A stretch of 64,000 nt of DNA from Terriglobia bacterium. GTDB taxonomy: Bacteria > Acidobacteriota > Terriglobia > UBA7540. A program made the position numbers and the translations under genes. Positions 42,275-59,631 of this stretch are shown here, in pieces. The notes below the pieces were generated by a model. It saw only the letters and a list, made by a program, of their open reading frames with translations, was not told the origin of the DNA and did not search any database. The stretch lies in contig JBKQVI010000535.1 of assembly GCA_052139985.1 (NCBI GenBank), positions 1,920 to 65,919 on the forward strand, in the 5' to 3' direction. The stretch's first letter is position 1, and each line of letters starts with the position of its first letter.

Positions 42275-42664
42275 ACTCTTCGTTCTCAGGATTCTTTTTT
42301 CCCCGCGCTTCTCGTCTACTCGTCTGTGGAACCGTAAGGGATTCGGGCCTCAATCAGGCGCCGATCACCAGCGCACCCCGCGCGGCGGGCCCGCCGCCGG
42401 TCCTGTCACCGCGCCGCTCGGGTACACTACCCTCCATCGTAGACTACCACCGTAGACGATCATTGTCAACAAGAATATTATCGATCTCTCCAGCAGGGGG
42501 CCTTACGAAGCGCGTGCCTGATGGTCTGAGATTCCCCCCGGGCGGCAGGGCTCGCTCACGCTCCGCCATTTTCCGAAGGCTCACGTTTGATGTATTCTGA
42601 TACTTCCCCGTTTGACCTCTACAGTTCGAGTGGTTCACGGCCGGATCGGGCTTACGGTTCTTCG

Positions 42665-45600
42665 ATGAATATAACGGATTCGAGCATAACGGCTTCTTCT
42701 GCTCTCGATTGGGCGCATCCCATCGTGCGCGAGTGGTTCCTCGGCCGGCTCGGCCATCCGACCGAGCCTCAGGAGCAGGGCTGGCCACACATCCTGGCAG
42801 GCGAAACCACGCTGATTTCTGCCCCGACGGGCTCGGGTAAAACTCTGGCGGCTTTCCTGGTTTGCATTGATCGCCTGGTAAAGAGTGCGCTTTCAGGTGA
42901 GCTCCGGGATGAAACCAAGGTGGTTTACGTTTCTCCGTTGAAGGCCCTGGGAAACGACATACAGAAGAATCTCGATATTCCGCTCGGGGGAATTCTGAAG
43001 CTGGCGGCGGCTCGCGGGCTTGTGCTGCCGGAGATTCGAACCGCGGTGCGCACCGGCGACACGCTGCTGCACGATCGCCGCGCGATGCTTAAGCGCCCTC
43101 CGCACATCCTGGTTACAACTCCGGAATCGCTTTACATCTTGCTCACGGCCGGAAAGAGCCGCGAAATCCTGAAATCGGTCGAGACGGTGATCGTTGATGA
43201 AATCCATGCCGTCGCCGATGACAAGCGCGGCACGCACTTGGTTCTTTCACTCGAGCGTTTGGAAGCACTCACCCGCCGGCCACCGCTGCGCATTGGCCTT
43301 TCGGCAACGCAGAAGCCGATTGAATTAGTGGCGCACTTTCTGTCCGGAAATGGCAGGCCGGATCCTACCGTCGTGCAAATCGGCCACCAGCGCGAGATGG
43401 ACCTTGCCATCGAAGTCCCTGCCAGCGAATTGGGGCCCGTTGCCTCCCACGAAATGTGGGATGAAATTTACGACAGGATCGGGGACTTGGTTCGACAGCA
43501 TCGTTCGACGCTCGTATTCGTCAACACTCGACGCCTGGCAGAGCGCGTGGCACACCACCTGGCGGAACGGCTTGGCCGAGACGCAGTCGCCACGCACCAC
43601 GGAAGCCTTGCTCGGAAACTTCGGCTCGACGCGGAAAAGCGGCTGAAGGCGGGCGAAATCCAAGTGTTGGTCGCCACGGCTTCGCTCGAACTCGGAATCG
43701 ACATCGGCGCGGTGGATCTGGTTTGCCAGATCGGATCGACGCGCGCGATCTCGGTGGCCTGGCAGCGAATCGGGCGGGCGGGTCACTGGCGCGGCGCCAT
43801 CCCCAAGGGCCGCATTTTCGCCACGACACGAGACGAATTGATCGAGTGCGCCGCTCTGGTGCGCGGCATGAGGCAAGGCGACCTGGACCGCCTGGAAATT
43901 CCCGAAGCGCCGCTCGAGATCCTGGCGCAGCACATAGTGGCAATGTGCGCGGCGGAGGAGTGGAAGGAAGATGACCTTTTCGCGCTGGTGCGGCGCGCTT
44001 ATCCCTATCGAAAGCTCGCTCGCGCCGACTTTGACGAGATCGTTGCAATGTTGTCCGAGGGGATCAACGCCCGCCGCGGCCGATGGGGCGCACACCTTCA
44101 CCATGACCAAGTGAACCGGCGTCTTCTGGGGAGGCGCGGCAGCCGGCTTACCGCCATAACCAACGGTGGGGCGATTCCGGATAACGCCCTCTACACGGTG
44201 GTGGCCGCACCCGCGGGCAATACCGTCGGCACCGTTGACGAAGACTTCGCGGTTGAAAGCCTGCGTGGCGATATTATGCTCCTGGGTAATGCCTCCTGGC
44301 GAATCCGGCGAATCCAGGCGGGGCGGGTTCTTGTGGAAGATGCGCACGGGTCTTCTCCCAACGTGCCTTTCTGGCGCGGCGAGGCGCCGGCACGCACATC
44401 CGAACTCTCGAAGCAAGTTGCCGATTTGCGCGAGAAGATTAGCGACATGACTCCAGGCGCGGGGCCGGGCACGGGGGATTCAGCGGAGGCCCAAGCGGCT
44501 ATGGCCTGGCTTCAGCGGGAGTGCGGTCTCGACAGCGCGGGCGCCGAGCAGGTTGTGGAGCACATTGTTGCAGGACGCGCGATTCTGGGAGCGGTTCCAA
44601 CGCTGACCACCGTCATTGCCGAGCGATTTTTCGATGAAAGCGGCGGGATGCAACTGGTGATCCACGCTCCCTTCGGCGGGCGAATCAACAAGGCTTGGGG
44701 ACTCGCACTGCGCAAACGATTCTGCCGGTCGTTCAATCTGGAATTGCAGGCGGCAGCGACGGACGATGGCATCAATATTTCGCTCTCGGAACAGCACAGC
44801 TTTCCCCTTGCAGATGTCTTCCGGTTTCTCCACCCGGCCTCGGTTGGGCAGGTGTTGGAGCAGGCGGTGCTGGCTTCTCCCATTTTCACCACGCGCTGGC
44901 GGTGGAACGCCTCGCGCGCCCTGGTCTTGTCCCGGTTTCAAGGCGGCAGAAAGGTTCCTCCGCAGATTCAACGCATGCGTGCCGATGACCTGCTGGCATC
45001 CGTCTTTCCCGATGCAGCAGCGTGTCCGGAAAACCTCGAAGGCGAGATGCAGATTCCCGACCATCCCCTGGTGCGCGAGGTGATGAAGGACGCACTCACG
45101 GAGGCGATGGACGTGGAAGGGCTGAAACAGGTGCTCGGGCGAATCCTGGAAGGTAGCATTCGCTGCGTGAGCGTGGACACACCCATGCCCTCGCGGTTCT
45201 CGCACGAGATTCTGAATGCGAACCCGTACGCCTATCTCGACGATGCTCCGTTGGAGGAACGACGCGCACGAGCGGTGGAAATGCGGAGAGCTTTGCCGGA
45301 TACCGTCGTTTCGGATATTGGACGGCTTGACCCGTCGGCAATTGCAGAAGTCCGGACGGAAGTGTGGCCAGACGTTCGCGACGCCGAGGAGTTGCACGAC
45401 GCCTTGGAAAGCCTCGTCGCTATGCCGGACTTGAGCTCTTCAGGAGCTGACCGACTTTCATCTGGAGACGCTGCGGATGATAGACCCCCAGATCTTGTCT
45501 ACCTCCAAAACGCCGTCCGCGAATCGCTCTTAGCTTGGCAAAAGTGTTTCGATGAGCTTCTGGCACAGCGGCGCATCGGACGAGCCGATGTCGCAGGCCG

Positions 45601-47029
45601 GTCGTACTGGGTGACGGCAGAAAAGGCCAAAGCCTTTGCTCAGATTTTTCCCGACGCCCGATTCACCACCGCGATCGCCACTGTCGAAGCCACCGTTTTG
45701 CAAGAGGAGGATGCACTCCGAGCGCTTGCTACCGGCTGGTTGGCCCACTCTGGTCCCGTGAGTTCTCGATCTCTTTCCCGGTTCTTGGGCATTTCCAAAG
45801 ACGAAATCGACGAGATTCTCGTGCGGATCGAAGCGAGCGGCACGGTCTTGCGTGGACAATTCTCGAACCTTGCGTCAAATGAGGTGGAGTGGTGTGACCG
45901 CCGGTTGCTCGCCAGGATTCACCGGCTGACGCTGGGAAAGCTGCGCAAAGAAATTGAGCCGGTCAGTGCGGCGAAATTCATGGACTGGCTGCTCCACTGG
46001 CAGCACGTGGCGGCGGGTACGCAGCTTGTCGGCGAGCACGGGACGCTTGAGGTGGTGCGCCAGCTTCAAGGGTATGAAGCTCCCGCCAATGCGTGGGAAC
46101 GCCACCTTTTGGCGTGTCGAGTGAGGAATTATGACCCGGACATTCTTGACCGGCTTTGCCTCACCGGATCGCTCGGCTGGGGACGCTTGTCGCCTCACCC
46201 CGCGGTGCTGCGCGATTTGAATGAGGGTGGCCATCGGGTTGTGCCCAGCAGTGTCGCGCCGATCACATTCTTCGCGCGGGATGACGCGGACTGGATGCTT
46301 TCGCGTCAGGGTGGGAATTCCGGCGAGGGCATGAATGGCTTGAGCCCCACTTCGAAAGCCGTCTGGGATTATCTCAAGGCGCGGGGTGCGTCCTTCTTTG
46401 TGGACATCGTGCGCGGGACTCGCAAATTGAAATCCGAAGTGGAGGGTGCTCTTTGGGAACTGGTTGCGGCGGGAATTATCACGGCCGACGGCTTTGACAA
46501 CTTGCGCGCCCTCATCGACCCGCGGCGACGCGCCGGCCAGGGCAGCGGCCGCAATTCACGTCCGCGGCACAGCACGGGGCGCTGGTCCTTGCTCTTTCCA
46601 AGCGCGACGGAGGACCGGGACGAAGTGATCGAGTCAACGTGCTGGATGCTTCTGCGTCGATACGGCATCGTTTTCCGCGAGGTGCTGACCCGGGAATCGA
46701 TTTTGCCGCGTTGGCGCGAGGTTTTGATCGCCCTGCGGCGATTCGAAGCGCGCGGCGAAGTGCGTGGGGGCAGGTTTGTGAACGGTTTTCTGGGAGAACA
46801 ATTCGCCATGCCGATGGCGGTAGATTCGTTGCGAACCACGCGGAGCCAGGCTGCCACTGGCGAACCGATCTCTGTTTCGGCTGCCGATCCTCTGAATCTT
46901 GCCGGAATCATCGTGCCGGGAGAAAGAGTCCCGGCGAATTCCGGCCGATTGGTGGGCTTTTGTGACGGCATCGCCGTGGATGCAAGTCAATTCGGCGCTT
47001 CATTTAAGACGGCGGCGCGCACAGGGTAA
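42665..47029 (+). CDS. lhr: Lhr-type large ATP-dependent helicase
   Basis: Walker A SAPTGSGKT, DEIH box VIVDEIHA, motif VATASLELGID, and a long Lhr-like C-terminal extension. Alternative start ATG at 42590. Confidence 0.9.
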   Translation: MNITDSSITASSALDWAHPIVREWFLGRLGHPTEPQEQGWPHILAGETTLISAPTGSGKTLAAFLVCIDRLVKSALSGELRDETKVVYVSPLKALGNDIQKNLDIPLGGILKLAAARGLVLPEIRTAVRTGDTLLHDRRAMLKRPPHILVTTPESLYILLTAGKSREILKSVETVIVDEIHAVADDKRGTHLVLSLERLEALTRRPPLRIGLSATQKPIELVAHFLSGNGRPDPTVVQIGHQREMDLAIEVPASELGPVASHEMWDEIYDRIGDLVRQHRSTLVFVNTRRLAERVAHHLAERLGRDAVATHHGSLARKLRLDAEKRLKAGEIQVLVATASLELGIDIGAVDLVCQIGSTRAISVAWQRIGRAGHWRGAIPKGRIFATTRDELIECAALVRGMRQGDLDRLEIPEAPLEILAQHIVAMCAAEEWKEDDLFALVRRAYPYRKLARADFDEIVAMLSEGINARRGRWGAHLHHDQVNRRLLGRRGSRLTAITNGGAIPDNALYTVVAAPAGNTVGTVDEDFAVESLRGDIMLLGNASWRIRRIQAGRVLVEDAHGSSPNVPFWRGEAPARTSELSKQVADLREKISDMTPGAGPGTGDSAEAQAAMAWLQRECGLDSAGAEQVVEHIVAGRAILGAVPTLTTVIAERFFDESGGMQLVIHAPFGGRINKAWGLALRKRFCRSFNLELQAAATDDGINISLSEQHSFPLADVFRFLHPASVGQVLEQAVLASPIFTTRWRWNASRALVLSRFQGGRKVPPQIQRMRADDLLASVFPDAAACPENLEGEMQIPDHPLVREVMKDALTEAMDVEGLKQVLGRILEGSIRCVSVDTPMPSRFSHEILNANPYAYLDDAPLEERRARAVEMRRALPDTVVSDIGRLDPSAIAEVRTEVWPDVRDAEELHDALESLVAMPDLSSSGADRLSSGDAADDRPPDLVYLQNAVRESLLAWQKCFDELLAQRRIGRADVAGRSYWVTAEKAKAFAQIFPDARFTTAIATVEATVLQEEDALRALATGWLAHSGPVSSRSLSRFLGISKDEIDEILVRIEASGTVLRGQFSNLASNEVEWCDRRLLARIHRLTLGKLRKEIEPVSAAKFMDWLLHWQHVAAGTQLVGEHGTLEVVRQLQGYEAPANAWERHLLACRVRNYDPDILDRLCLTGSLGWGRLSPHPAVLRDLNEGGHRVVPSSVAPITFFARDDADWMLSRQGGNSGEGMNGLSPTSKAVWDYLKARGASFFVDIVRGTRKLKSEVEGALWELVAAGIITADGFDNLRALIDPRRRAGQGSGRNSRPRHSTGRWSLLFPSATEDRDEVIESTCWMLLRRYGIVFREVLTRESILPRWREVLIALRRFEARGEVRGGRFVNGFLGEQFAMPMAVDSLRTTRSQAATGEPISVSAADPLNLAGIIVPGERVPANSGRLVGFCDGIAVDASQFGASFKTAARTG

Positions 47030-47110
47030 TGGTGCAGTTTGACGTAGAGGCGGCTTTACGCCGCCATTTGGCGAGGTAAACTCGCCGCTACAACGTCAAA
47101 CTGCACCACT
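47030..47110 (-). repeat. family B palindromic element, inverted relative to 41800-41884, flanked by direct GGGTAAT
   Basis: The inner sequence is the reverse complement of the 41800 copy. GGGTAAT occurs at 47024-47030 and 47114-47120. Confidence 0.85.
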
Positions 47111-47212
47111 ACCGGGTAATGACCTAACTCGACTTTGCTTTTGGGCATTGTCATCTCCTACGCACATGAAGTAATTTAGTTTTATTCTCACGAGCAGGAG
47201 ACGAGCGCGCAA

Positions 47213-49810
47213 ATGCCTGGCCACCATCCGCAGAGCAAGATGCCAACGGCATCACCCGTTACCAAGGGCGGGAGCGTGCCTGCTTCGGAAGAAAATGAAG
47301 TGCGCGCCTTGCTGGCCCGAGGCAGCACAAAACATGCGGTGGAGCTGGCAAAGCAGATCCATAAGCATTTGTCTTCGCCGGCCTCCGAGTCGCTGCTTGT
47401 GGACGCCTACTCGGCGAGAATTCGGTCCTTGCTGAAGGTCGGCCTGGCGACGGAAGCCAAGGCATTGCTGGACCTCGTAAGGGAGCGGTATCCCTCCGCA
47501 AAAGAAAAGTTCGGTGACATTGGTGTGGTGGTTGCCAGCAAGCAAGACACCCTGGACGAACTTCTTGCCCCACTGAACGATCCAGCCCTCCCCCAGGAGA
47601 GACGGCTTGCCATCGAAGCAGCGATCAAGTGCCAGGTAAGCGATCTTTCAGCCCTAGTGCAATGCCCGACACTCGCGATGGACCATCCGCTACGTATGGG
47701 CGCGGCTGCCTTGATGAGAGTCCTGGAAGCGGTCACCAGCGGCGCAGTCCCGGACGACGCACTCCTCTTACCTGAAGTCTCCCGCCGAGGTCCACTTGCT
47801 CCCTGGAAGTTCCTGGTGCGAGCTATTAGCTGCTTTTACCGGAACGACGACACGGGCAGCGCGGAATGCCTTCAGGCCATCGATCCGGACTCGGCTCCCG
47901 CACGGCTGATTCCTGCCCTACGGGCCGCGCTCGAACAAGGACCCGTGGACCGTCTTCCACCCGCTTCGGCATCGCTAGTGGCGCAGATTGAGGGGAAGCA
48001 GGAGGCTTTGCGAAAGGTCCTCAAATCACTCGATGATGCCCTGGCCAAAAGTGCGGAGCACAAGATCATTCCAGAAATTCAGCGCGCCATTTCTCTCTGC
48101 ACCGCTACCTGCCCTGAGTTGGTGGAGCGTCTACGCTTGCATGTTTGGACATTTGCGATCCGATCTGACCTTAACATGAGGCGGCTTGACGCGGCGCTGG
48201 GTGGCCCGGTGCTGAAGAACGCCTATTTCTGGCGTCTCTATGCCCGGGAAGTGGAATTTTCCGACAATCCATTAAAGCCCGCGGCGTGTCGCTTGTGGGA
48301 AGAGTTTCGACGGCACGCAGTGGCTGAGAACTGGTTCCGGGAGGACGGCCCGGAGGCGGCAGCCCTCTACGTTCATATGGCGGAGCTTATGCAGGAGGTC
48401 CCGCCCGAAGCGCTGGGAGATGTGCAACGGGATTTCGCCGCTAAAGCCGGCAACTTCCCCCGTTACTATGATGATCAGCCCGCCGCCATCCGGGCAGTGG
48501 CCGCAAAGTACGATTCGTCGGATGTTTACTTCCTTTTTCCGGAGAAGCTTTTTGAGCGCGCTTGCACGCTTGACCCCCATGCGGAAGCCTTTCAGAAATG
48601 GCTGGATTGGGCGATGCAAGAAGGCGATTGGAAAGCGGCCGAACGGGTGTGCACGATCTGGAACCGGGCGCTGCCGAACGATAGCCGGCCACTCCTCCAC
48701 CTCATGGAATCAGCGGAGAGTCGGGGAGCATTGGACAAGGCTTTCGGCTTTCTCAAACTCGCGCAAAAGTGTGACGCTCTTGGCACGGAGGTTCGCCGGG
48801 CGGCGTTTCGGCTTCTGGTGGCCAAGGCTCTTCGCCACCTCCGACAGCGCAAGCCGCATCTGGCCGAACAAGACGTGACGGCCCTGGAAGCGTTGCCGCA
48901 GGCGCAGGAGGCCGACCGTCCCGCATTTGTAGCTTGCTTGCGCTGGACCTGCTCCGTGCTTGATGGCAACTCCGATGGTGCTGCGGGCCTCTTATCGCAA
49001 GTGAGTCGCTTGCTCGATAGTCCGGCCGCCGGGGCTCTAGCTTGCGAGAGCACGGCGAATGCCTGTGGATTGGCGGTCGATCGATTTCTTCCGGAAAAGG
49101 CGGTGGCGCGACAAACAGATTCGTTGGCTTGTGCCATCGCTCGCGCCTGCGCTCTCGGCGACGACGTGGGTGTGGCGTTCAACATACCGCCGGCATGGGA
49201 AAGCAGAATCCTCCAGGAGCTATCGAAGAAGCCTGACAAGCTTGAGGTGCGGCAACTGCTGGCCTTGGGGGAGGCAGCTCTGCGAAGAAACCGGAGGGAG
49301 TTGGCCTACGCGGCATCCACTGCCGGGTTGGACAAGGGCGGGGACGCGGAAGGGAGATTCGTGTTGATGCGTGCTCGCGCCCTGCCGGGAGGAGATGTCC
49401 GGCGCCGGACGGATTGCCTGGCAGCCGCCGCGGAACTCGGGCGCCGGTACCGGGATGTGGATCTGGTTGACCAAGCCGTGGACTTGCAAAGAGGAGGTTC
49501 CGGCCGGCCGAACTTTCTCGATTGGGCTTACTCTATGGAGGAGCCTGCTGCCTCCTTGAGCACAGAAAGACTGAATCAGGTGCTTAAACGCGAAAAGCGG
49601 GCGCGCAAATTCCCAGTTTCCTCGTGGGCTCCGGAGTCGGAGTATGAGCCTTTCGACGACGATCTTGACGAGGAAGACGACGATGACTTGGACCAGGTCG
49701 ACCTGGAGGAGTTTAGCCGGCTTCTCGATGAAATGGGCCGCGCCCAGCCGCGAAAGAAGCCACCCAAGAGGCCGCGTCCAACCTGGCCTGGTCAAGGAGA
49801 GCTATTTTGA
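47213..49810 (+). CDS. large all-helical (TPR/HEAT-like by composition) hypothetical protein with acidic C-terminal tail
   Basis: 865-aa ORF. No enzymatic motif recognised. Tail DDDLDEEDDDDLDQVDLEEF...PTWPGQGELF. The stop overlaps the next start. Confidence 0.7.
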   Translation: MPGHHPQSKMPTASPVTKGGSVPASEENEVRALLARGSTKHAVELAKQIHKHLSSPASESLLVDAYSARIRSLLKVGLATEAKALLDLVRERYPSAKEKFGDIGVVVASKQDTLDELLAPLNDPALPQERRLAIEAAIKCQVSDLSALVQCPTLAMDHPLRMGAAALMRVLEAVTSGAVPDDALLLPEVSRRGPLAPWKFLVRAISCFYRNDDTGSAECLQAIDPDSAPARLIPALRAALEQGPVDRLPPASASLVAQIEGKQEALRKVLKSLDDALAKSAEHKIIPEIQRAISLCTATCPELVERLRLHVWTFAIRSDLNMRRLDAALGGPVLKNAYFWRLYAREVEFSDNPLKPAACRLWEEFRRHAVAENWFREDGPEAAALYVHMAELMQEVPPEALGDVQRDFAAKAGNFPRYYDDQPAAIRAVAAKYDSSDVYFLFPEKLFERACTLDPHAEAFQKWLDWAMQEGDWKAAERVCTIWNRALPNDSRPLLHLMESAESRGALDKAFGFLKLAQKCDALGTEVRRAAFRLLVAKALRHLRQRKPHLAEQDVTALEALPQAQEADRPAFVACLRWTCSVLDGNSDGAAGLLSQVSRLLDSPAAGALACESTANACGLAVDRFLPEKAVARQTDSLACAIARACALGDDVGVAFNIPPAWESRILQELSKKPDKLEVRQLLALGEAALRRNRRELAYAASTAGLDKGGDAEGRFVLMRARALPGGDVRRRTDCLAAAAELGRRYRDVDLVDQAVDLQRGGSGRPNFLDWAYSMEEPAASLSTERLNQVLKREKRARKFPVSSWAPESEYEPFDDDLDEEDDDDLDQVDLEEFSRLLDEMGRAQPRKKPPKRPRPTWPGQGELF

Positions 49811-50133
49811 ACCGCCACAGGAATCCGCAAAGCGCCCTCACGCCGCCTAAAGATGCCAGGGATATTCTGGGCGTCGGCCCGAACGCCACCGATGCTGAAA
49901 TCCGCGCCGCCTATCTGCAAAAGGTGAAGGAGAACCCGCCGGACCGTGCACCGGACCAGTTCGAGCGCATCCGCGATGCCTATGATTTGCTACGCGACCC
50001 GCGGCGTCGCGCGCTTCAGATGTTGCTCGGAGTCGATCCGAATGCTCCGCTCGTTTCGCTGTTGCCGTCCCATCCGGCGGAGAGGCGCTTCACGGGGCCT
50101 GGGCCGTGGCTGGCGGCCTTAAGGGAGAAATAA
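49807..50133 (+). CDS. J-like domain protein with HPD replaced by PPD
   Basis: ARDILGVGPNATDAEIRAAYLQKVKENPPDRAPDQFERIRDAYDLLRD aligns to J-domain helices I-III. TTG start overlaps the upstream TGA by 4 nt. Confidence 0.65.
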   Translation: MNRHRNPQSALTPPKDARDILGVGPNATDAEIRAAYLQKVKENPPDRAPDQFERIRDAYDLLRDPRRRALQMLLGVDPNAPLVSLLPSHPAERRFTGPGPWLAALREK

Positions 50134-50135
50134 GC

Positions 50136-50870
50136 GTGGAACGCGAAGAGATTTTGCGCCGCTTTGAAGCTTGGCTGGACCGCGTGCTGGCGGCGGAAGA
50201 GGCTCCCCAGGGAATTGCCGCCGAACTCCTTGCCTCCCTCTCCGCGGAAAACCCGCCTGAGACGGAGGGCCCAGCCGACCTGTATTCGATGCAGGCGGCG
50301 GTGACCGGCCTGACACAGGAGGTAAAGCTTCAGGGGAGAAGCTTCAAACAACTGAGCGAAACCCTTGCTCCCCTCGCGGATATGGCCCCGCAGTTAGCGG
50401 CGTTGCAGCACGAGGCCCAAGTGAGCGCGCGGCGGGAAATGCTCGACGTGCTTCTTGACCTCCGGGACCGCTTGGGCCGGGGTCTCGAAGCCGCTCGCGT
50501 CAGTCAAACGAAATTGCGCGACGCCCGGCAGTCCAACTGGCCGGCCCGTTGGTTGGCGCGCCACTCCTCAGTGCGCCAAGCGTCGGAAGGGTTAGCAGCG
50601 CTAGTGGAGGGTTATCGATTGAGCCTGGAACGTCTTGACGAAGTTCTGGCGCAATCCGATGTGCGGGCGATCGACTGCCAGGGTCAACCTTTCGACCCGG
50701 ACACGATGTATGCCGTGGACGTGGAGGAGACCGACCGAGCCACCGAGGGCACGGTCGTGGAAGTGTATCGAACGGGCTATGAATGGAAGGGCGAGGTGCA
50801 TCGCCCTGCGCAAGTGAAGGTTGCGCGCAAACCAACTTCCAAACCAACCGAGGACGATGAAGATGAATGA
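50136..50870 (+). CDS. GrpE-like nucleotide exchange factor
   Basis: C-terminal G.PFDP..M.A......EG.VVEV.R.GY......H RPA.V.V pattern and an N-terminal coiled coil. GTG lies 2 nt after the upstream TAA, with GGGAGA upstream. Confidence 0.75.
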   Translation: MEREEILRRFEAWLDRVLAAEEAPQGIAAELLASLSAENPPETEGPADLYSMQAAVTGLTQEVKLQGRSFKQLSETLAPLADMAPQLAALQHEAQVSARREMLDVLLDLRDRLGRGLEAARVSQTKLRDARQSNWPARWLARHSSVRQASEGLAALVEGYRLSLERLDEVLAQSDVRAIDCQGQPFDPDTMYAVDVEETDRATEGTVVEVYRTGYEWKGEVHRPAQVKVARKPTSKPTEDDEDE

Positions 50871-52728
50871 GTTGATCGCAGGCATTGATCTTGGAACCAC
50901 CAACTCCGAAATAGCAGCCTTCGTTAAGGGCCAAGTGCAGGTTCTTGGACCTGAGGCCGGCAAGATGCTACCCTCGTGTGTGGGCTTTTCGCCCACGGGC
51001 CAGCTCCTGGTGGGCCAATCGGCTCGCCATCAGCAGCTCCTCTATCCGGAATTAACCGTGCGGAGCATCAAACGCAAAATGGGTTCGGCGGACGTGGTGA
51101 AGCTCGGCGACAAAGCGTTCACGCCCCAGGAAATCTCAGCGCTCATTCTGCGCGAGCTGGTGGAATGGGCGCGGCGCGACCTGAATCAGCCTGTGGAGAA
51201 AGCCGTTATCACTGTGCCTGCTTATTTCTCCGACGCCCAGCGCAACGCCACGCGCGAGGCGGGAGCGCTGGCGGGGCTCGAGGTCATGCGAATCCTCAAC
51301 GAGCCGACGGCGGCCAGCCTCGCCTATGGCTTCGGCGACACCGCGCAACATACCGCCATGGTCTACGATCTGGGCGGCGGCACCTTTGATGTCTCCATCG
51401 TCACGGTGGAGGGCGACGTCACCGAAGTGCTGTCGAGCCATGGTAATAACCGCCTGGGCGGTGACGACTTCGACGACCTGTTGCTGGAGCGCCTGGAGCG
51501 GGAATTCCAAGACCAATACAGTATTGATCTGCGCCGCGGCCACCCCGCCGCGCACTCGCGGCTCTGGTGGGCAGCCGAAGAAGCCAAGAAGAAACTCAGC
51601 TACGAACCCTACGTCCGGGTGCGGGAAGAAGCCTTGGTAATGGATAACGGCAAGCCCCTGCACCTTGATTTGGAGCTCTCCCGCGCCGAGTACGAGGAGA
51701 TGATTCGTCCCCTCGTCGAGTCCACGCTCGATAGCGTTTCCAAAGCGTTGGGCGATGCGCGTAAGAGTCCTGCCGACCTCGATGCCATTCTTCTGGTGGG
51801 AGGTTCACCCCGCACGCCTCTTATTCCCCAGCGACTACAGGAGTTGACCAAGCTCGCACCGCGCCAGGATGTACACCCAGACTTGTGCGTGGCACTGGGG
51901 GCTGGTGTACTGGCGTCTCGCCTGGCCGGGCACGAAGTGGAGCGGGTGCTGGTGGACGTCTCACCCTTTTCCTTTGGCCCATCTTACCTCGGCGACCGCG
52001 GCGGATTTCCGTATGTGCATTGCTATCACCCCATCATTCATCGCAACACGCCGCTGCCGGTCACGCGTACGAACCAGTACTGCACGGCGAGCCCGTATCA
52101 AACTTCCGTACAAGTTGAGATCTATCAAGGCGAGGACGAAGACGCTCTTAAAAACATTCTCGTCGGGGATTTCCTGATCGAGGGGTTGCGGCCGACCGAA
52201 GAACCGAACGAAGTGCTTTGCCGCATGAGCCTGGATGTAGACGGCATTCTGCATGTCACGGCGATCGAGAAGGAGACGGGCAAGTCCAAACACATCACAA
52301 TTGCGCGGGCGCTGGAGGCGAAGAGCGCGGCCGAGATTGCGGCGGCGCGGGAACGAGTGGAGAAAATGTATTCGTCTCGAGCCGCGGAAGAGATCTCCGG
52401 GGACTTAGGAGAGGATCAGGCCGACATGGAAGGTGAGGAGGTAGCAGAACTCGCGGATGCCGAAGAGGTAACCGAGCAGGGAAGTGCAGAGAAGGCGAAG
52501 GAGCAGGCTGCTCCCGCGCCCGGCATAACTGCGGCGGTGGAGGAAGACGCCAAGGGACTGATCGAGCAATCTAGGCGTTTGCTGGACAAAATGCACCCAG
52601 AGGACAAAGAAGAAGTAATCGGACTGCACGAGAGGATTAGTGCGGCTATTTCTGCGAATGACCTTGATGAGTTGAAGAAGGCCATGGCCGAACTCCGTGA
52701 ACTGCTCTTCTTCGTCGAGGGACATTGA
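50857..52728 (+). CDS. Hsp70-family ATPase (DnaK paralog)
   Basis: GIDLGTTNS, VITVPAYFSDAQRNATREAG, NEPTAASLAYG, VYDLGGGTFDVS, LVGGSPRTPLI, and a substrate-binding domain. The ATG overlaps the GrpE-like gene by 14 nt. Confidence 0.9.
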   Translation: MKMNELIAGIDLGTTNSEIAAFVKGQVQVLGPEAGKMLPSCVGFSPTGQLLVGQSARHQQLLYPELTVRSIKRKMGSADVVKLGDKAFTPQEISALILRELVEWARRDLNQPVEKAVITVPAYFSDAQRNATREAGALAGLEVMRILNEPTAASLAYGFGDTAQHTAMVYDLGGGTFDVSIVTVEGDVTEVLSSHGNNRLGGDDFDDLLLERLEREFQDQYSIDLRRGHPAAHSRLWWAAEEAKKKLSYEPYVRVREEALVMDNGKPLHLDLELSRAEYEEMIRPLVESTLDSVSKALGDARKSPADLDAILLVGGSPRTPLIPQRLQELTKLAPRQDVHPDLCVALGAGVLASRLAGHEVERVLVDVSPFSFGPSYLGDRGGFPYVHCYHPIIHRNTPLPVTRTNQYCTASPYQTSVQVEIYQGEDEDALKNILVGDFLIEGLRPTEEPNEVLCRMSLDVDGILHVTAIEKETGKSKHITIARALEAKSAAEIAAARERVEKMYSSRAAEEISGDLGEDQADMEGEEVAELADAEEVTEQGSAEKAKEQAAPAPGITAAVEEDAKGLIEQSRRLLDKMHPEDKEEVIGLHERISAAISANDLDELKKAMAELRELLFFVEGH

Positions 52729-53024
52729 TGGAACCGGACGATTCGCCCCGCTGCCCCGTATGCCAGGCGCGCTTTCGGGACTCTTCTACCTGCTCGCGTT
52801 GTGGCGCCGATCTTGCCCCGCTAATGTTGCTGATGGCGAGGGCTCACCGGCTGCGACAGGACGCCCGAGGCGCCTTGCAAGGGGGTGACCCTGAGCGAGC
52901 CCAGAGGCTGGCCGCGGAAGCCCAGGCGATTTGCTCCAGCTCGCAGGGACGGGACCTCTGGCTCCTCTGTGCTTGGCTGCTCGAATCCTCCGCGCGAACG
53001 TCCATCGTAACTTATTTGGAATGA
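52728..53024 (+). CDS. small zinc-ribbon protein (CPVC-x12-CSRC) with helical tail
   Basis: The ATG overlaps the last base of the Hsp70 TGA (TGATG). 98 aa. Confidence 0.55.
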   Translation: MEPDDSPRCPVCQARFRDSSTCSRCGADLAPLMLLMARAHRLRQDARGALQGGDPERAQRLAAEAQAICSSSQGRDLWLLCAWLLESSARTSIVTYLE

Positions 53025-53516: not shown

Positions 53517-54542
53517 ATGATACCTGCCAGCGAAGAAAACGCTCTTGAATTCAACCTGGACAGACGTGATCGATCTCACAACGCGCAGGCTTGGGAAGGC
53601 GACCGAGCGGAAAGTGAAGAAATTCCTGCGTACTATAAACGGAGGTCGGCAGGCGTTTGGACGTGGTTAGCCACCCTGACCGTCGCTTTGGCAGTTATGA
53701 TGAGTTATGGTTATACCGTTCTAACGCGGCAAGGTATTCAATCAGAACAGATTCCTGGCATGACGAGATCGCTCTCCGCGATCGGTCAACACTTGGGGAG
53801 CGTCGAGAGACGCCTTGCTGATTCGAGGGCGGATCAACAGCATCTTGCCTCGCAGGTTCAAAGCATTGACGCGGGGTCGAAGGTCGCTCTCGGCCTGACC
53901 CAGCAACAAACGAGTCAGCTTGTTGCCCACGCCCAAGGGGCGATGCTCAAGCAACTGAAGCAACAAACCGCCGCCTTCCAGGCGCAGGTAACGCAGTTGG
54001 CGAGCGAGCGGCAGGCGGACCGCACTCAGTTGGCGCAAATGGCAGACCAGCTTACCCGAACTCGTACTGAACTCGAGACTACCCGGGCGGACTATACCCG
54101 CCAGGTTGAGTTGCTCCGCGAACAGCAAGGCGAGGAGCATCGCGAACTTGCTTCCATCAACAACTCACTTCCTACCCGTCAGGTGCCTTTTGAAATTCAA
54201 AAGAATCACAAGGTGCAGGTAGCCTCCGCCGTCTACTTGCAGGTGACTAAAATCGACGTTCGGCGTCAACGTTTTGACGGATGGATTGAATCAACGCTGG
54301 GTAATCCCAAGGTTTGGATTCAAAGCCAGGGAGTCGGAAATCCCGTGGTTTTCTATCCCGGCGCGCAAGGTAAGCCGGTCGTGATGGTTGTGACCAGCGT
54401 CGATCAAAAGGGTGCGGTGGGTTATCTGTTGTTGCCGGCAACAAGCAGCACAAGCGATCAGGCGCCTTCCATTTCTTCTGCTAGCCGGCAAGCCGATCCC
54501 AAAGCGGTACTGCCCAGTGAGAGCAGCGCCGTGCATCAGTAA
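53517..54542 (+). CDS. membrane-anchored coiled-coil hypothetical protein
   Basis: One TM segment (VWTWLATLTVALAVMMSYGY). Long Q/L/A-rich heptad-like region. C-terminal beta-rich domain. Confidence 0.6.
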   Translation: MIPASEENALEFNLDRRDRSHNAQAWEGDRAESEEIPAYYKRRSAGVWTWLATLTVALAVMMSYGYTVLTRQGIQSEQIPGMTRSLSAIGQHLGSVERRLADSRADQQHLASQVQSIDAGSKVALGLTQQQTSQLVAHAQGAMLKQLKQQTAAFQAQVTQLASERQADRTQLAQMADQLTRTRTELETTRADYTRQVELLREQQGEEHRELASINNSLPTRQVPFEIQKNHKVQVASAVYLQVTKIDVRRQRFDGWIESTLGNPKVWIQSQGVGNPVVFYPGAQGKPVVMVVTSVDQKGAVGYLLLPATSSTSDQAPSISSASRQADPKAVLPSESSAVHQ

Positions 54543-54879: not shown

Positions 54880-57800
54880 TCACGAGGAAGGCGGGGGAGG
54901 GGTTGAGCCTTGACCTTGTGCTTCCTGATGAGCGTCGCGATTCGACCCTCCGTTCGAACCCCTCTCTGTGCGCGAAGAGGCAAGAATGGGATTGCGTCTG
55001 CGATGTCTCGCCGGGGGTCTGTCTTTCTCGGAGGAGGTAAAGGAACCGACCATTATTAGAGTACTGAGCGCCACTCTTTCGTGTAACACCATTTCCGTCG
55101 CCATTACTTTGGGCTCTCGGTGGAACCATTTCTGGATAGAAGATTGGTTGAGGAAGTTACAGAGCGCCACCAGGCTCATCCCTTGATGATGTGCCATCCA
55201 GCAGCGGATTATTTCATAATCGCCGCTTTCAGTTTTCTGAGCGGGAGTGAAATCGCAGGAGTCATAGAAACCCCGAGAACCCAGGCAACCCATCTTCGTC
55301 ATGATCTCGAGGTTTCGCGTCGCGGCGTCGGGCTCAACGAGCAACGCCAGAAAGCTGGAATAAGGGGAAACCACAAGATTTTTGGGTGCGTGCGGGTCCA
55401 TCGCCAACCCTGGCACTCCAAAGGCCCGGTACCCGTATTCCCCCCGCGGATTTCGATCACTGAAGGCAGCTTCCGAGATGCCCCAGGGAACATCATTCTT
55501 GTGCGCGTATTTCATCTGACAACTAATTGCGGCACGCAGAGTTTGGTCCATAATGGTGTCCGGATGGGAGCGCATCCAGAGCGCCGGCATCAGATACTCA
55601 AACATCGTGCCACTCCAGGAGAGAAGCAGGCGCTCTCCCAGGTACGAAGTGTACGACCTTCCGAGGCGAAGCCAAGCCTCCTGGTGAACTTCGCCCTTGG
55701 CGGCGGCGATGAAAACCGCGGTTCGCGCTTCGGAAGCCAGTAGATCGTAGTAATACGGGTCCAACTTGTTCGTGGGAACGTTCCAGCCCGTCGAAAACGA
55801 TTTCCTTTTAGGATTGTAGAGAAAGCTGAAATCCATTTCATTTACAAGTTGATCGGTGTCTCGAACGACCCGCTGGAGGGCCTGTGCGAGCCTATCTGCA
55901 TTGTCGGCGCTCATGGGGAGCCGGCGTTGCAACAAGCGCGCGGCGCTTCTTTCGGCCCCGCCGGCCCGGTCATTGGTTAGGGATTCGGCCACTTGGTTTT
56001 CCACATCGTGCAAGGCAGCAGGGAGAGAGGCCAGCGTAATTCGCTCGATGGGGGCTCCCCGCTGGAAAAGTGGCAGATACTCGGGGAGCACCCAGGGCAT
56101 GAGGTTCTCCACCTGATTGCGAACTCCCCGCAGGCGCGCCGCGGTCTCTCCGGCCCACCAAACCAGGTCCACAGCCGGACAGACGCCCGTCTCGGTGGAA
56201 TCCCTGGCGCTGTTGCTCAACGTACTTTCAATCCGTTGAATCTGTTCTTCCAGCCACGGCAACGCTCCGATCCAAGAAGCAGCATCGTCCCCCAGCGGCT
56301 CCGCGAATGCTGCCAAGTCCTTTATCGCTTTAGAGGTTTCGACGGGAATTGTGGAGTCTTGCGAAAGATCCGAGAGGAGTTGAATAGGGTCACGTATTCC
56401 CTGCCACAGCTTCTTGGGTAATAACGGTTCACTCGAAAGGCCGAGGCAGCTCTGTTTCACGGTCCACAAGCAGGCCGCCAGGTTTCCGCTATCCACCGTG
56501 GAAATGAATAATGGCGGCAGAGGCTGGGCGGTTTGAATATCATACCAGTTGAAGAAATGGCCGTTGTGCCGCGGCAATTGCTGGGCGCTTCTGAGCGTAC
56601 GCTCAACCGCTTCTGCATACTCCTGTAAAGTTAAATAGCCCAACTCATGCGCGGCCAACTGCGCATTGAACAGAAGCCCCAGATTAGTGGACGACAGGCG
56701 AGCTGCTACGATTGGCGGATCCTCCTGCACATTATCCGGTATCAGCCAGTGATTTTCGGCATTGCTGAATTCACGGAAATACCGCCACGTACGAAGTCCC
56801 GCGAGGCGGAGAAAACTTTCGTGCTGCGGAGTTAGTTGAGGTTTTCGGTCTGCATGCTGGCGATTCACCCAATTCGAAAAAAAATCAGGAAGCAGCCAGA
56901 GTATCAATATGGGAGAGGCAATATACAGCGCGGCGGGACGAACCACAGCGAGAAACAGGGCTGTGGCCAAGGAAATGTAAGGTGTGACCGCCAAATACGT
57001 TTCAACCAGGGACTTCTTCTTTCCCAATTCGGATTCTGCCGCCGTCTCCCATTCCAGTAAGTTGCTGTGGGTTACGGTAAGGCGCGTGAGGGTTCGCAGA
57101 ATGGCATCCATCATGACCAGCGCCTGATGAGGAAGGAAGACGAGCATGACGAAGACGTGTAGGTGCCCCGACACCAGATCGTCGGCCCGCTCCTGCAAAA
57201 ATCCGCGCCAATTCTGGTCTCTGCGGATTCTCAGAAACGCAAACAAGAGTTGTGAGTAAGTAGGCATCAACAGCAGGCCGAGCGTTACCAGCGTCCAGTA
57301 AACCGGGCCACCGGGAAGAATCGCCCAGCCTAGAATCAGCAGCAGGAACAAGCCAATGTCGTTCATGCTCCGCCGCAGGTTATCGAAGATCTTCCAGCGG
57401 GAAATGAAGGTCAGGGGATTAGGCACGCGCCTGCCGAAATAGTCCGGAACCCGGGGCAAAAGCCACCGCATAATCTGCCAGTCGCCTCGCACCCATCGAT
57501 GCAGCCTGCGGCTATAGGCGCTGAGGTGGGACGGGTAGTCATCAACGACGACGATGTCGCTCGCCAGCCCGGCGCGAGCGTAGGCTCCTTCAATGAGATC
57601 GTGGCTCAGTAGGGCATTGGTAGGGAACCGCTTGCCCAGGACCTTTTGGAAAGTTTCGACTTCATAAATTCCCTTGCCGGTGAAGCTGCCCTCGCCGAAG
57701 AGATCCTGGTAAACGTCGGAGACTGCCTGTGAGTAGATGTCAAACCCGGTCTGCCCCGAATAAATAGAGGCGAGGCGCGAGTGGCGGGAGGACTCGACGC

Positions 57801-59631
57801 TGACGCTGACCCGGGGCTGGAGAATGGCGTGACCCTCGACCACGATATTGGTCCTCGGATCGACCACGGCCCGGTTCAGGGGGTGTGCCAGAGCTCCAAT
57901 GAGCGCCTGCGCCGCCCCAGGGGGTAATTTGGTGTCAGAATCCAAGGTAATAACATAGCGAACTCGCGGGAGCACCGACACGTCTCCGGTTTTCACTGGG
58001 AAGCTGTCAAAGGTCCCAAGCAGCAAATTGTTAAGGTCCATCAGCTTGCCGCGCTTTCGTTCCCAGCCCATCCAACTTCCTTCCGAGGGGTTGTAAACTC
58101 GATGACGGTGCAAATGCAGAAAGCTGCCCCGCAGGTCCGGCGAGTACTTCTGGTTGAGTTGGCGAATAAGATTGGAGCACAAACCCACCAGCTCATCATG
58201 CTCATCAAAGGGCTGGGAAGCATCGGGTGAATCCGTCACCAGCGCGAAGTGGAGATGGGGATCGTGGTTGGCCAGATAGCGGATTTCCAGGCTGTCGACA
58301 TTGCGCCGCACCTCTGCTTCGCTCAACAGTAAACAGGGAACCGCGACGAGGGTCGTGCAATCGGCGGGGATTCCGTCGGAGAAATCCAGCTTGGGGATTC
58401 GCCGAGGAGGCACGATGATGCTGGTCAGGTGATTTACGATGCCGATGGCGGCGTGGCTCGCAGGGATCAACAAAAGCAAGCCGGGCACAAACGGAATGAT
58501 GATGCCAAGGTGCTGCAAGAGGAAAAACACGAGGGCAACGGTGGTCAGTTCCACTCCCACAATGAAAAAGACCTCAGGCCATTCGAGGATGGTATCCAGG
58601 ATCCGGTATTTGAACGACGGCTTGTACCCGATCCGCTGTTTCAGGGTACGGTGGCCGGCACCCATGAGGTAATAGCCGACGTGCGTCCGACGGTTCGCGG
58701 TGCTTGAATCCGTACGCCTGGTTTGATTCTTGGCCCGCATGGCCAGGAATACAGCTTGCCGCGCCACTTCTTCCTCGCTGAAGAGCGCGTGCCGTGCCAA
58801 CTCCTGAACAGTTTTGCGGTACATCTGCCGGCTCTGCTCATCCATGTTGGCGTAGGCGCCAAACGGATCTTGCTGCAGGACGCGCTCACTGGAGCTGTTT
58901 TGTTCGAAGAAGCCTTTCCAATCCGTTTGCTGGATGAAGTGGAGAGCCTGGACCAGCTTCTGGAGCGGTTCGACGCTCCGATCGCCGGATGCATTGGCTT
59001 CTCCGTGCTCGGCTTCACGTCGAGTGCAGAGCGCCTTGCCGTGGTCGGTGATTTGTTCCAAGATGGCGAACTCCAGCATGGGTTTTAAGGCCCATATCTC
59101 TGCCATCATGAGACTTTCGACATGCTGGATTCCTTCGAAATAGTGAGAAAGAGCCGTCTCGGTGGGGATCACCTCCACACCGCGAAGAAAGCCAGTCGCC
59201 ACCGCGAAGGCGCGCGGAACGGCAGCGTCTGATTCTTTCGAGACGGTGAGGCCGCGTAAGCTCTTCAACTCATCGGAGACCTCTTGGCTGAATGTTTGCA
59301 GCAACCGGACGTTTTCCAGAAGGGTGATTTCATCCGCGGATAGGGTTTCGTCTCTGGATTGACGTTCCCTGAGGTCGCGCGCAAGATTTCGAATTTGCCT
59401 TTTGACCCTTCGCCATCGGCTGACAAAAGCCGCACGCGACTTCCTGCCATCCACGATCCGCCATCCCTCCGCATCGCGAATCCCCTGCGCGGTCAGCCTT
59501 CGCATCTGCACTTCGGGCGGCTCTTGTTTTTCAGCCGCGGGAGGGGGTGAAGCGGGAAGGGTCGGGGCGATTGTGCCCTCCCCATCCGGCCTACCAACGG
59601 AATCCGAAGGATTTTCAGCAGGAGGTGCCAT
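54880..59631 (-). CDS. cyclic beta-1,2-glucan synthase-like protein (GT84-type transferase plus (alpha/alpha)6 glucan-processing domain, no GH94 module)
   Basis: ITLDSDTKLP ... SHDLIEG ... LHRWVRGDWQ glycosyltransferase block with flanking TM helices. Then FFNWYD...VDSGNLAA...SWSGTMFEYLMP...PWGISEAA. 1583 aa. Confidence 0.8.
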   Translation of the reverse strand: MAPPAENPSDSVGRPDGEGTIAPTLPASPPPAAEKQEPPEVQMRRLTAQGIRDAEGWRIVDGRKSRAAFVSRWRRVKRQIRNLARDLRERQSRDETLSADEITLLENVRLLQTFSQEVSDELKSLRGLTVSKESDAAVPRAFAVATGFLRGVEVIPTETALSHYFEGIQHVESLMMAEIWALKPMLEFAILEQITDHGKALCTRREAEHGEANASGDRSVEPLQKLVQALHFIQQTDWKGFFEQNSSSERVLQQDPFGAYANMDEQSRQMYRKTVQELARHALFSEEEVARQAVFLAMRAKNQTRRTDSSTANRRTHVGYYLMGAGHRTLKQRIGYKPSFKYRILDTILEWPEVFFIVGVELTTVALVFFLLQHLGIIIPFVPGLLLLIPASHAAIGIVNHLTSIIVPPRRIPKLDFSDGIPADCTTLVAVPCLLLSEAEVRRNVDSLEIRYLANHDPHLHFALVTDSPDASQPFDEHDELVGLCSNLIRQLNQKYSPDLRGSFLHLHRHRVYNPSEGSWMGWERKRGKLMDLNNLLLGTFDSFPVKTGDVSVLPRVRYVITLDSDTKLPPGAAQALIGALAHPLNRAVVDPRTNIVVEGHAILQPRVSVSVESSRHSRLASIYSGQTGFDIYSQAVSDVYQDLFGEGSFTGKGIYEVETFQKVLGKRFPTNALLSHDLIEGAYARAGLASDIVVVDDYPSHLSAYSRRLHRWVRGDWQIMRWLLPRVPDYFGRRVPNPLTFISRWKIFDNLRRSMNDIGLFLLLILGWAILPGGPVYWTLVTLGLLLMPTYSQLLFAFLRIRRDQNWRGFLQERADDLVSGHLHVFVMLVFLPHQALVMMDAILRTLTRLTVTHSNLLEWETAAESELGKKKSLVETYLAVTPYISLATALFLAVVRPAALYIASPILILWLLPDFFSNWVNRQHADRKPQLTPQHESFLRLAGLRTWRYFREFSNAENHWLIPDNVQEDPPIVAARLSSTNLGLLFNAQLAAHELGYLTLQEYAEAVERTLRSAQQLPRHNGHFFNWYDIQTAQPLPPLFISTVDSGNLAACLWTVKQSCLGLSSEPLLPKKLWQGIRDPIQLLSDLSQDSTIPVETSKAIKDLAAFAEPLGDDAASWIGALPWLEEQIQRIESTLSNSARDSTETGVCPAVDLVWWAGETAARLRGVRNQVENLMPWVLPEYLPLFQRGAPIERITLASLPAALHDVENQVAESLTNDRAGGAERSAARLLQRRLPMSADNADRLAQALQRVVRDTDQLVNEMDFSFLYNPKRKSFSTGWNVPTNKLDPYYYDLLASEARTAVFIAAAKGEVHQEAWLRLGRSYTSYLGERLLLSWSGTMFEYLMPALWMRSHPDTIMDQTLRAAISCQMKYAHKNDVPWGISEAAFSDRNPRGEYGYRAFGVPGLAMDPHAPKNLVVSPYSSFLALLVEPDAATRNLEIMTKMGCLGSRGFYDSCDFTPAQKTESGDYEIIRCWMAHHQGMSLVALCNFLNQSSIQKWFHREPKVMATEMVLHERVALSTLIMVGSFTSSEKDRPPARHRRRNPILASSRTERGSNGGSNRDAHQEAQGQGSTPPPPSS

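Follow-up and report, generated by a model that had tools for sequence, protein, structure and literature searches.

The window analyzed here, a 64-kb stretch of DNA from a Terriglobia (Acidobacteriota) metagenome-assembled genome (MAG), carries at 47213-53024 a five-gene cassette that is best read as a self-contained, specialized Hsp70 system standing apart from the DnaK machinery of housekeeping. Genes A to E specify, in order, an 865-aa helical protein, a J-like protein, a GrpE-type nucleotide exchange factor (NEF), an Hsp70, and a small zinc-ribbon protein (gene E, also called Z). As judged from the sequence, a complete Hsp70 cycle is encoded, with an ATPase and clamp predicted to be competent and with its own NEF and J-type partner, and this cycle is inherited as one unit with the tetratricopeptide repeat (TPR)-like superhelix of protein A and the zinc-ribbon protein. 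We put the probability of a dedicated Hsp70 system with protein A as its platform or obligate client at roughly 60%, and have much less confidence in any specific contacts within the assembly.

Five open reading frames (ORFs) on the + strand fill 47213-53024, and on the ORF list and a base-by-base reading each abuts or overlaps its neighbor. Gene A (47213-49810, +; 865 aa), for a predicted TPR-like superhelix with a disordered C-terminal tail, ends in TTGA at 49807-49810, where the TTG start of gene B at 49807 overlaps the TGA stop at 49808-49810. Gene B (49807-50133, +; 108 aa) encodes a J-domain protein with NPPD in place of the histidine-proline-aspartate (HPD) tripeptide, and its TAA at 50131-50133 is followed by the GTG start of gene C at 50136 (TAA-gc-GTG, 50131-50138). 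Gene C (50136-50870, +; 244 aa) encodes the GrpE-type NEF. The ATG of gene D at 50857 lies 14 nucleotides (nt) inside gene C, which ends at 50870; because an alternative ATG at 50863 is better spaced to the GAGGA at 50850-50854 than ATG 50857 is, the two genes may share only 8 nt. Gene D (50857-52728, +; 623 aa) specifies a full-length Hsp70 with nucleotide-binding domain (NBD), linker, beta substrate-binding domain (SBD-beta), and lid. Gene E (52728-53024, +; 98 aa), for a zinc ribbon followed by three helices, takes the A of its ATG at 52728 from the TGA of gene D at 52726-52728 (TGATG, 52726-52730).

Shine-Dalgarno-like purine tracts precede the starts of gene A (AGGAG, 47196-47200), gene B (AAGGAG, for the start at 49807), and gene C (AAGGGAGA, for the start at 50136). 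The TTG start of gene B is backed by its AAGGAG and by the N-termini of orthologs, and the orthologs of gene C open with M-[DE]-REEILRRFE, favoring GTG 50136 over GTG 50106. Protein A was 100% identical to NCBI entry ACLQVL_33170. A preliminary description of this DNA had listed five same-strand ORFs with these four junctions, all of which were borne out, as was the tight translational coupling that it read from them, and its identities for the three chaperone genes, in the order given, agreed with Pfam matches to J (PF00226), GrpE (PF01025), and Hsp70 (PF00012).

We ran the five window proteins by tblastn on 84 related loci, each read with 10 kb on either side. All 69 loci with enough sequence held A-J-GrpE-Hsp70-Z in the same order on one strand, while the other 15 ended too early, cut by contig ends; gene Z was the last cassette gene in every complete locus (69/69). 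Median identities to the window proteins over the 69 complete loci were 67% for Hsp70, 60% for J, 54% for Z, 48% for GrpE, and 41% for A, from which we conclude that all five genes are under purifying selection. All-against-all clustering of 678 flank ORFs revealed no conserved flanking genes, the best cluster occurring in 8 of the 84 loci, and the called-gene tables of five other loci listed unrelated neighbors of housekeeping, transport, or miscellaneous kinds. Because the order is kept while the flanks vary, the cassette is an autonomous five-gene unit kept intact across several bacterial phyla, and its arrangement is far beyond chance. The preliminary description had staked its case on the neighbors being co-conserved in related genomes and had proposed a gene-neighborhood analysis seeded with the 865-aa protein; that analysis found the five genes co-inherited at 69/69 loci, in four phyla and amid unrelated flanks.

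The cassette is rare among the species representatives scanned. In a scan of one genome per species, relatives of protein A were present in 202 of 185,579 species representatives. The 80 loci fetched out of these 202 genomes were all from MAGs and belonged to Acidobacteriota (Terriglobia, Bryobacterales, Solibacter-like), Desulfobacterota, Planctomycetota/Phycisphaerae, and Rokubacteria. No relatives were found in IMG/VR viral contigs or in PLSDB plasmids, and an origin of the cassette in a mobile element was rejected on these grounds. The defense models of PADLOC-DB 2.0 gave no significant match to the components, with only two hits at E 0.01 and 0.05.

Gene D matched PF00012 over residues 7-615 (E 9.3e-132) and aligned to solved DnaK structures. 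It scored well below the DnaK equivalogs, at 466.9 bits for NF001413 (cut-off 648) and 458.2 bits for TIGR02350 (cut-off 822.55), and reached 371 bits against the HscA equivalog (cut-off 709). Its identity was 37% to Escherichia coli DnaK, 36% to E. coli HscC, and roughly 45% to Geobacillus DnaK. The scores below the DnaK cut-offs and the 37% identity uphold the earlier claim that this Hsp70 is non-canonical. The residues of the ATPase and of interdomain signaling are those of an ordinary Hsp70. Numbered by an E. coli DnaK reference that we checked at five landmark positions (T199, K70, E171, R167, and D393), the catalytic residues D8, K70, E171, D194, T199, and D201 and the allosteric residues P143, R151, R167, N170, T173, D393, and D481 were present in the window Hsp70 and in at least 51 of 52 aligned orthologs, and D326 was kept in 49 of the 52. 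The J-responsive residues R167, N170, and T173 and the linker residue D393 are thus all kept. Since every residue checked for ATP hydrolysis and allostery is kept, the gene D Hsp70 is predicted to be catalytically and allosterically intact and should run a normal ATP-driven clamp cycle.

The divergence of gene D lies elsewhere. The NBD has a ~24-residue deletion relative to DnaK (DnaK residues ~76-101), of a kind common outside proteobacteria, and loop L1,2 of the SBD has an 8-residue insertion that aligns with that of E. coli HscC. The substrate cleft differs from that of DnaK by I401P, T403Y, M404L, and F426Y, and the lid carries a variable acidic linker. The protein has no disordered C-terminal tail and finishes in a near-invariant ELLFFVEG.

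The J domain of gene B matched PF00226 over residues 19-69 (E 1e-10; 41.9 bits, gathering cut-off 27.8), and the protein scored 34 bits against the DnaJ equivalog TIGR02349 (cut-off 377). The domain is canonical, with a basic helix II and a helix III of sequence FERIRDAYDLLRDP, apart from the loop between them, which reads K-E-N-P-P-D-R, so that NPPD (nt 49933-49944) replaces HPD; the loss of the histidine had been correctly called in the preliminary description. The change is a property of the whole family. The motif xPP[DE], with x being N, H, F, or Y, occurred in all ~75 syntenic orthologs and in 120/120 best database homologs, and HPD was found in none of either set (0/~75 and 0/120). No type I DnaJ features were present, that is, no G/F region, CxxCxGxG repeats, or C-terminal domains; the J domain is followed instead by a conserved C-terminal extension, DP.APL.SLL...ERRF.GP.PWLAVL. 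A J loop that is altered but keeps its Asp/Glu, opposite an unchanged Hsp70 side, suggests either that a private interface has been re-tuned or that the J-like protein is a regulatory subunit.

Gene C matched PF01025 (E 9e-23; 81.2 bits, gathering cut-off 25.8) and scored under every NCBIfam GrpE equivalog cut-off, and by these profile scores it is a divergent member of the GrpE family. A conserved N-terminal helix, EILRRFE.WLD..L..EE.P.GI, stands ahead of the GrpE fold.

The ribbon of gene E reads CPVC-ARFR-x4-C-x-RCGADL (nt 52752-52802), with C9, P10, C12, A14, R15, F16, R17, C22, R24, C25, G26, and A27 invariant. The AlphaFold2 model of the product (mean predicted local distance difference test score, pLDDT, 82.6) has three helices after the ribbon, and a fold search against the PDB gave no significant match. 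Pfam returned zinc-ribbon matches to gene E below threshold only. Weak likeness to DZR_2-type ribbons may explain the label "predicted amidophosphoribosyltransferase" that Z homologs bear in some sources. The window also encodes a ComF-like protein with a DZR_2 double zinc ribbon and a phosphoribosyltransferase domain, at 36205-37080 (+).

Protein A matched no family in Pfam or NCBIfam, found nothing usable in PADLOC, and as a profile gave nothing under E 0.4 against PDB sequences. The preliminary description had left open that the 865-aa protein might prove to be a well-known family, which is not so, and its view that the 865-aa and 98-aa partners are of unassigned family stands. A word-indexed search returned 384 matches, and an exhaustive profile search collected 627 clusters (50% identity) at E<=1e-30 and 1983 at E<=1e-3; by profile similarity, protein A defines a large uncharacterized family. 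Structure prediction, which had been proposed along with the profile searches, gave an all-alpha AlphaFold2 model (pLDDT 83) with ~44 helices over residues ~23-760 and a disordered tail at residues ~762-865. Foldseek against the PDB matched the model to giant TPR scaffolds of eukaryotic complexes, namely Ski3, Ctr9, IFT-A, TPR subunits of APC/C, Naa15, and TTC7 with E from 4.5e-6 to 1e-3 and low TM-scores. We therefore predict a TPR-like superhelix for protein A, the similarity being at the level of fold class only; the protein did not match the Pfam TPR or Sel1 profiles.

The tail of protein A consists of an acidic run, a short amphipathic helix (831-841), a K/R-rich run, and a C-terminal tip, QGELF (nt 49793-49807). 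We compared these motifs over 328 homologs. The K/R run (at least 5 K/R within 10 residues) was present in 294/328, while the extreme C-terminus differed by clade: 95/328 had a tip of the form Q-x-x-L-F, including the QGELF of the window, 41/328 had an acidic-x-P-F tip such as DDDFPF, with intermediates such as NQGDLPF, and 135/328 ended in a bare K/R C-terminus, for example in Desulfobacterota (P0080). Where present, the tip was always outermost, after the K/R run. In one subclade of protein A (P0091, P0094, P0096, P0097, P0101, P0112, P0116, and P0117) the tail contains a C-x-C-P-x-C cluster, which the window protein does not have and which could be an extra metal or redox site; among the carriers, P0094 is named Bryobacteraceae and P0091 and P0096 are from Acidobacteria.

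From these parts we propose that the five products would form one assembly. Extended peptides or helices are what TPR solenoids bind, and the cassette products have many short conserved segments beyond their core folds; for both reasons the ~760-residue superhelix of protein A is our candidate for a platform on which short conserved segments of the partners would dock. The candidate segments are the C-terminal extension of the J-like protein, the N-terminal helix of GrpE, the helices of Z, and perhaps the ELLFFVEG of the Hsp70. The tail of protein A presents a hydrophobic helix and then a K/R run, a kind of sequence that Hsp70 clefts prefer, and ends with acidic, hydrophobic, and Phe residues; it might serve the Hsp70 as a handle on the scaffold or else tether the assembly to a polyanionic target. 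The J-like protein would probably still dock at the NBD/linker site of the Hsp70, because R167, N170, T173, and D393 are kept, and its altered loop may have co-evolved to avoid cross-talk with the housekeeping DnaK. With each round of ATP turnover the scaffold, or a client on it, would then pass between assembled and released states, with the outcome that one specific complex is remodeled, as distinct from general protein folding.

Several observations weigh against this proposal. To our knowledge the HPD histidine is essential in every J domain studied, and because the cassette loop is without it, the J-like protein might be a regulator or docking subunit and not an activator of the ATPase. 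The ELLFFVEG terminus corresponds in the alignment to the final lid helix of DnaK, and its role may be no more than structural. Among the 678 flank ORFs of the 84 loci, no conserved neighbor gene points to a client.

Along with the preliminary description, we infer a "dedicated remodeling or sensing machine", of which "remodeling" is the better supported half because no effector or defense signature was found. An explanation that we consider unlikely is an anti-phage or conflict system in which the TPR protein would sense an invader protein while the Hsp70 cycle would set a threshold or drive an abortive response, by analogy with Hsp70/GrpE-containing GAP1-N2 GTPase systems or with DnaJ-dependent sensing by bNACHT25. 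Horizontal spread would be in keeping with the patchy occurrence over distant phyla and in unrelated genomic surroundings, TPR arrays are common as sensor modules, a toxin-antitoxin pair lies near one locus, and some predicted conflict systems combine Hsp70 and GrpE with proteins fused to DnaJ or TPR (PMC7159879). In the GAP1-N2 systems (Kaur et al. 2020, eLife, PMC7159879), the genes for a dedicated Hsp70 and GrpE accompany one for a partner that bears DnaJ or TPR. Those systems, however, are built on a GAP1-N2 TRAFAC GTPase and FNIII-repeat proteins and are reported mainly from actinobacteria and firmicutes (PMC7159879), whereas Pfam and NCBIfam searches found no GTPase or FNIII domain in the cassette products, nor any nuclease, protease, TIR, pore, or other effector domain, and there is no conserved extra flank gene. 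There was no credible PADLOC match, the flanks of the window and of five annotated loci are mostly housekeeping or transport genes and not defense islands, and the family was absent from the viral contigs and plasmids searched. The components are also well conserved rather than hypervariable.

The tip of protein A raises a second alternative, which we think rather improbable: targeting to replication or repair, with the tip docking the sliding clamp or proteins that bind the tip of single-stranded DNA-binding protein (SSB), and the Hsp70 remodeling stalled DNA-bound complexes much as DnaK/DnaJ/GrpE releases lambda P from DnaB. The clamp-binding consensus is QL[SD]LF and the SSB tip is DDDIPF. 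The tip of the window clade is of beta-clamp type (Q-x-[SDE]-L-F) and that of another clade is of SSB-tip type (D-D-[ILFV]-P-F), resemblances that we take from established knowledge. The counts of 95 and 41 of 328 homologs, the existence of intermediates, and the outermost position of the tip after the K/R run all point the same way, as does the Lhr helicase gene just upstream in the window. Against this, the clades of Desulfobacterota and Planctomycetota lack the tip and have K/R runs at the C-terminus instead (135/328), and because whole clades are without the tip it cannot be the core function. The Lhr neighbor is not conserved, and short acidic-hydrophobic C-termini are also ligands of TPR carboxylate clamps, Hsp70 clefts, and proteases. 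We regard as equally doubtful the fuller version of this idea, a holo-machine on a giant TPR platform that would be recruited through the tail tip to a replisome or repair hub, would strip or reset stalled complexes there, and would use its HPD-less loop as a private orthogonal J-Hsp70 interface. If true, it would be a new class of targeted chaperone remodeler, and its J domain would be the first in nature to function in the absence of the catalytic His.

We also compared the cassette with the HscC-type Hsp70s, which do not depend on GrpE, are 550-580 aa long with a shortened lid helix B, and have a 4-8-residue insertion in SBD loop L1,2 and a deletion of DnaK residues ~76-101 (PMC8215388). 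The gene D Hsp70 has both the insertion (8 residues) and the deletion (24 residues), but not the GrpE independence or the length. That the cassette is an HscC-type system, orthologous to E. coli HscC/DjlB/DjlC, is a poor prospect. In its favor, the insertion and the deletion are held in common (PMC8215388), and in both a non-housekeeping Hsp70 is encoded beside its own J proteins and helical-repeat (Sel1/TPR-like) proteins, since the E. coli hscC locus also has TPR-like Sel1-repeat genes. However, at 36% identity the Hsp70 is no closer to HscC than to DnaK, and the cassette has its own GrpE (69/69 loci) and a 623-aa Hsp70 with a longer lid, whereas HscC comes without a NEF of its own and probably does not use GrpE. 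DjlB and DjlC are ~480 aa, against 108 aa for the cassette protein, and according to the literature they keep HPD. The HscC partners (DUF1266, Sel1) are unrelated to protein A, and kinship of A with them was rejected on an hhalign probability of 0.3% or less for the A profile against DjlC or YbeU. The locus in E. coli K-12 (L085, NC_000913.3 676000-688000) reads ybeQ-ybeR-djlB, ybeT-ybeU-djlC, and then hscC: a set of three genes, for a Sel1-repeat, a DUF1266, and a J protein, occurs twice beside the specialized Hsp70, an association with helical repeats that resembles the cassette but is not homologous to it.

A rearranged housekeeping dnaK operon, that is, a general chaperone with two unrelated genes attached, is very improbable even though Hsp70, GrpE, and a J-domain protein are present with all catalytic residues intact, in view of the Hsp70 scores (467/458 bits against DnaK cut-offs of 648/823) and 37% identity to E. 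coli DnaK, a partner that is not a type I DnaJ and has HPD in no member, the co-conservation of A and Z at 69/69 loci, and the restriction to 202 of 185,579 species representatives of a cassette whose supposed counterpart, DnaK, is near-universal in bacteria.

A specialized bacterial Hsp70 with private co-chaperones is already known as a kind, from HscA/HscB and from HscC/DjlB/DjlC. Like the cassette, HscA and HscB are a private Hsp70 and a private J protein in one operon, and they serve one client, IscU. Unlike gene D, HscA works without GrpE, and HscB has a canonical HPD; the HscA equivalog score was 371 against 709, and no isc genes lie near the cassette. The pairing of an Hsp70 that has a near-invariant C-terminus with a TPR protein recalls the eukaryotic TPR co-chaperones that bind EEVD at the Hsp70 C-terminus (Hop, CHIP, DNAJC7). 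There is no sequence relation between the two, though: ELLFFVEG is hydrophobic and aligned to a lid helix, its binding by protein A would be purely hypothetical, and protein A exceeds a three-repeat TPR clamp domain tenfold in size. Mitochondrial Pam16/Tim16 likewise belongs to a dedicated Hsp70 machine and has the fold of a J domain but another sequence in place of the catalytic tripeptide. Pam16 is the partner of a true J protein, Pam18, whereas the xPPD protein is the sole J-type protein of the cassette and retains the Asp/Glu. Full-text literature searches found no description of a TPR mega-scaffold with an xPPD J-like protein, GrpE, an Hsp70 with an HscC-like insertion, and a zinc ribbon, and the architecture is apparently undescribed. 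Bacterial DnaK derivatives beyond HscA and HscC have been described as unexplored (PMC8215388, PMC13580251).

We also examined the region upstream of gene A. A promoter-like element and leader occupy 47148-47200 (+), with TTGTCA at 47148-47153, an 18-nt spacer, TAATTT at 47172-47177, and the AGGAG at 47196-47200. The ~85 nt upstream of gene A (47130-47212) were near-invariant in two related species (L005 and L006, 7900-8000), while sequence farther upstream diverged; the block conserved across the three species comprises TTGTCA-N17/18-TAATTT and AGGAG. Other clades have their own TGACAT/CATAAT-type elements at the same position. From this conservation we infer a promoter ahead of gene A. A stringent sigma-70 consensus scan listed nothing, including the 47148-47177 element, and a sigma-54 reading of the conserved block was rejected on its GG/GC spacing. 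No terminator was found after gene E in the scan. In Bryobacterales-type loci, TGACAT…CATAAT is followed by a C-rich CCCCCGAG leader.

Directly after the stop codon of the preceding gene is a palindromic element at 47025-47113, with a ~20-bp outer stem enclosing two inner hairpins. Its RNA fold was -60.4 kcal/mol (z -9.3), it had no Rfam match and no T-run, and within the window only its own two arms match one another. It was rejected as a regulator of the cassette, not being kept upstream of the cassette in relatives. No Rfam family or tRNA was found in the window.

The preceding gene encodes an Lhr-type helicase (42587-47029, +; 1480 aa) with the full set of Lhr winged-helix domains, separated from gene A by a 183-nt gap, and ~490 nt lie between gene Z and the next ORF. 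The helicase and the downstream genes were rejected as parts of the cassette because they are not conserved neighbors. In the window, the genes neighboring the cassette encode MetH, Lhr, a glucan-synthase-like protein, an ABC ATPase, and a GH15 enzyme. The ORF at 53517-54542 (+; 341 aa) has no Pfam family, is predicted to have one hydrophobic segment, contains a Q-rich region resembling a coiled coil, and was not found adjoining the cassette elsewhere. In the product of 54880-59631 (-; 1583 aa), Pfam recognized only a "Glycoamylase" domain at the C-terminus, and the protein resembles enzymes of the cyclic glucan synthase or phosphorylase type; it is followed by genes for an ABC ATPase and for a GH15 glucoamylase/trehalase-like protein. 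At one acidobacterial locus only (L086, 9659-9934), a gene for a small Smr-domain protein lies directly upstream of gene A.

The phyla in which the cassette is common (Acidobacteriota, Desulfobacterota, and Planctomycetota) are abundant in soil and sediment but little studied. With its clear limits, and with a NEF, J-type partner, scaffold, and zinc-ribbon subunit strictly co-inherited, the cassette is a good case in which to test how an Hsp70 comes to serve a single task. The family-wide loss of HPD would mean either a regulatory J-like subunit or a J-Hsp70 interface re-engineered to be orthogonal to the housekeeping DnaK, and an orthogonal interface, if true, would be of interest to researchers in chaperone mechanism and synthetic biology.

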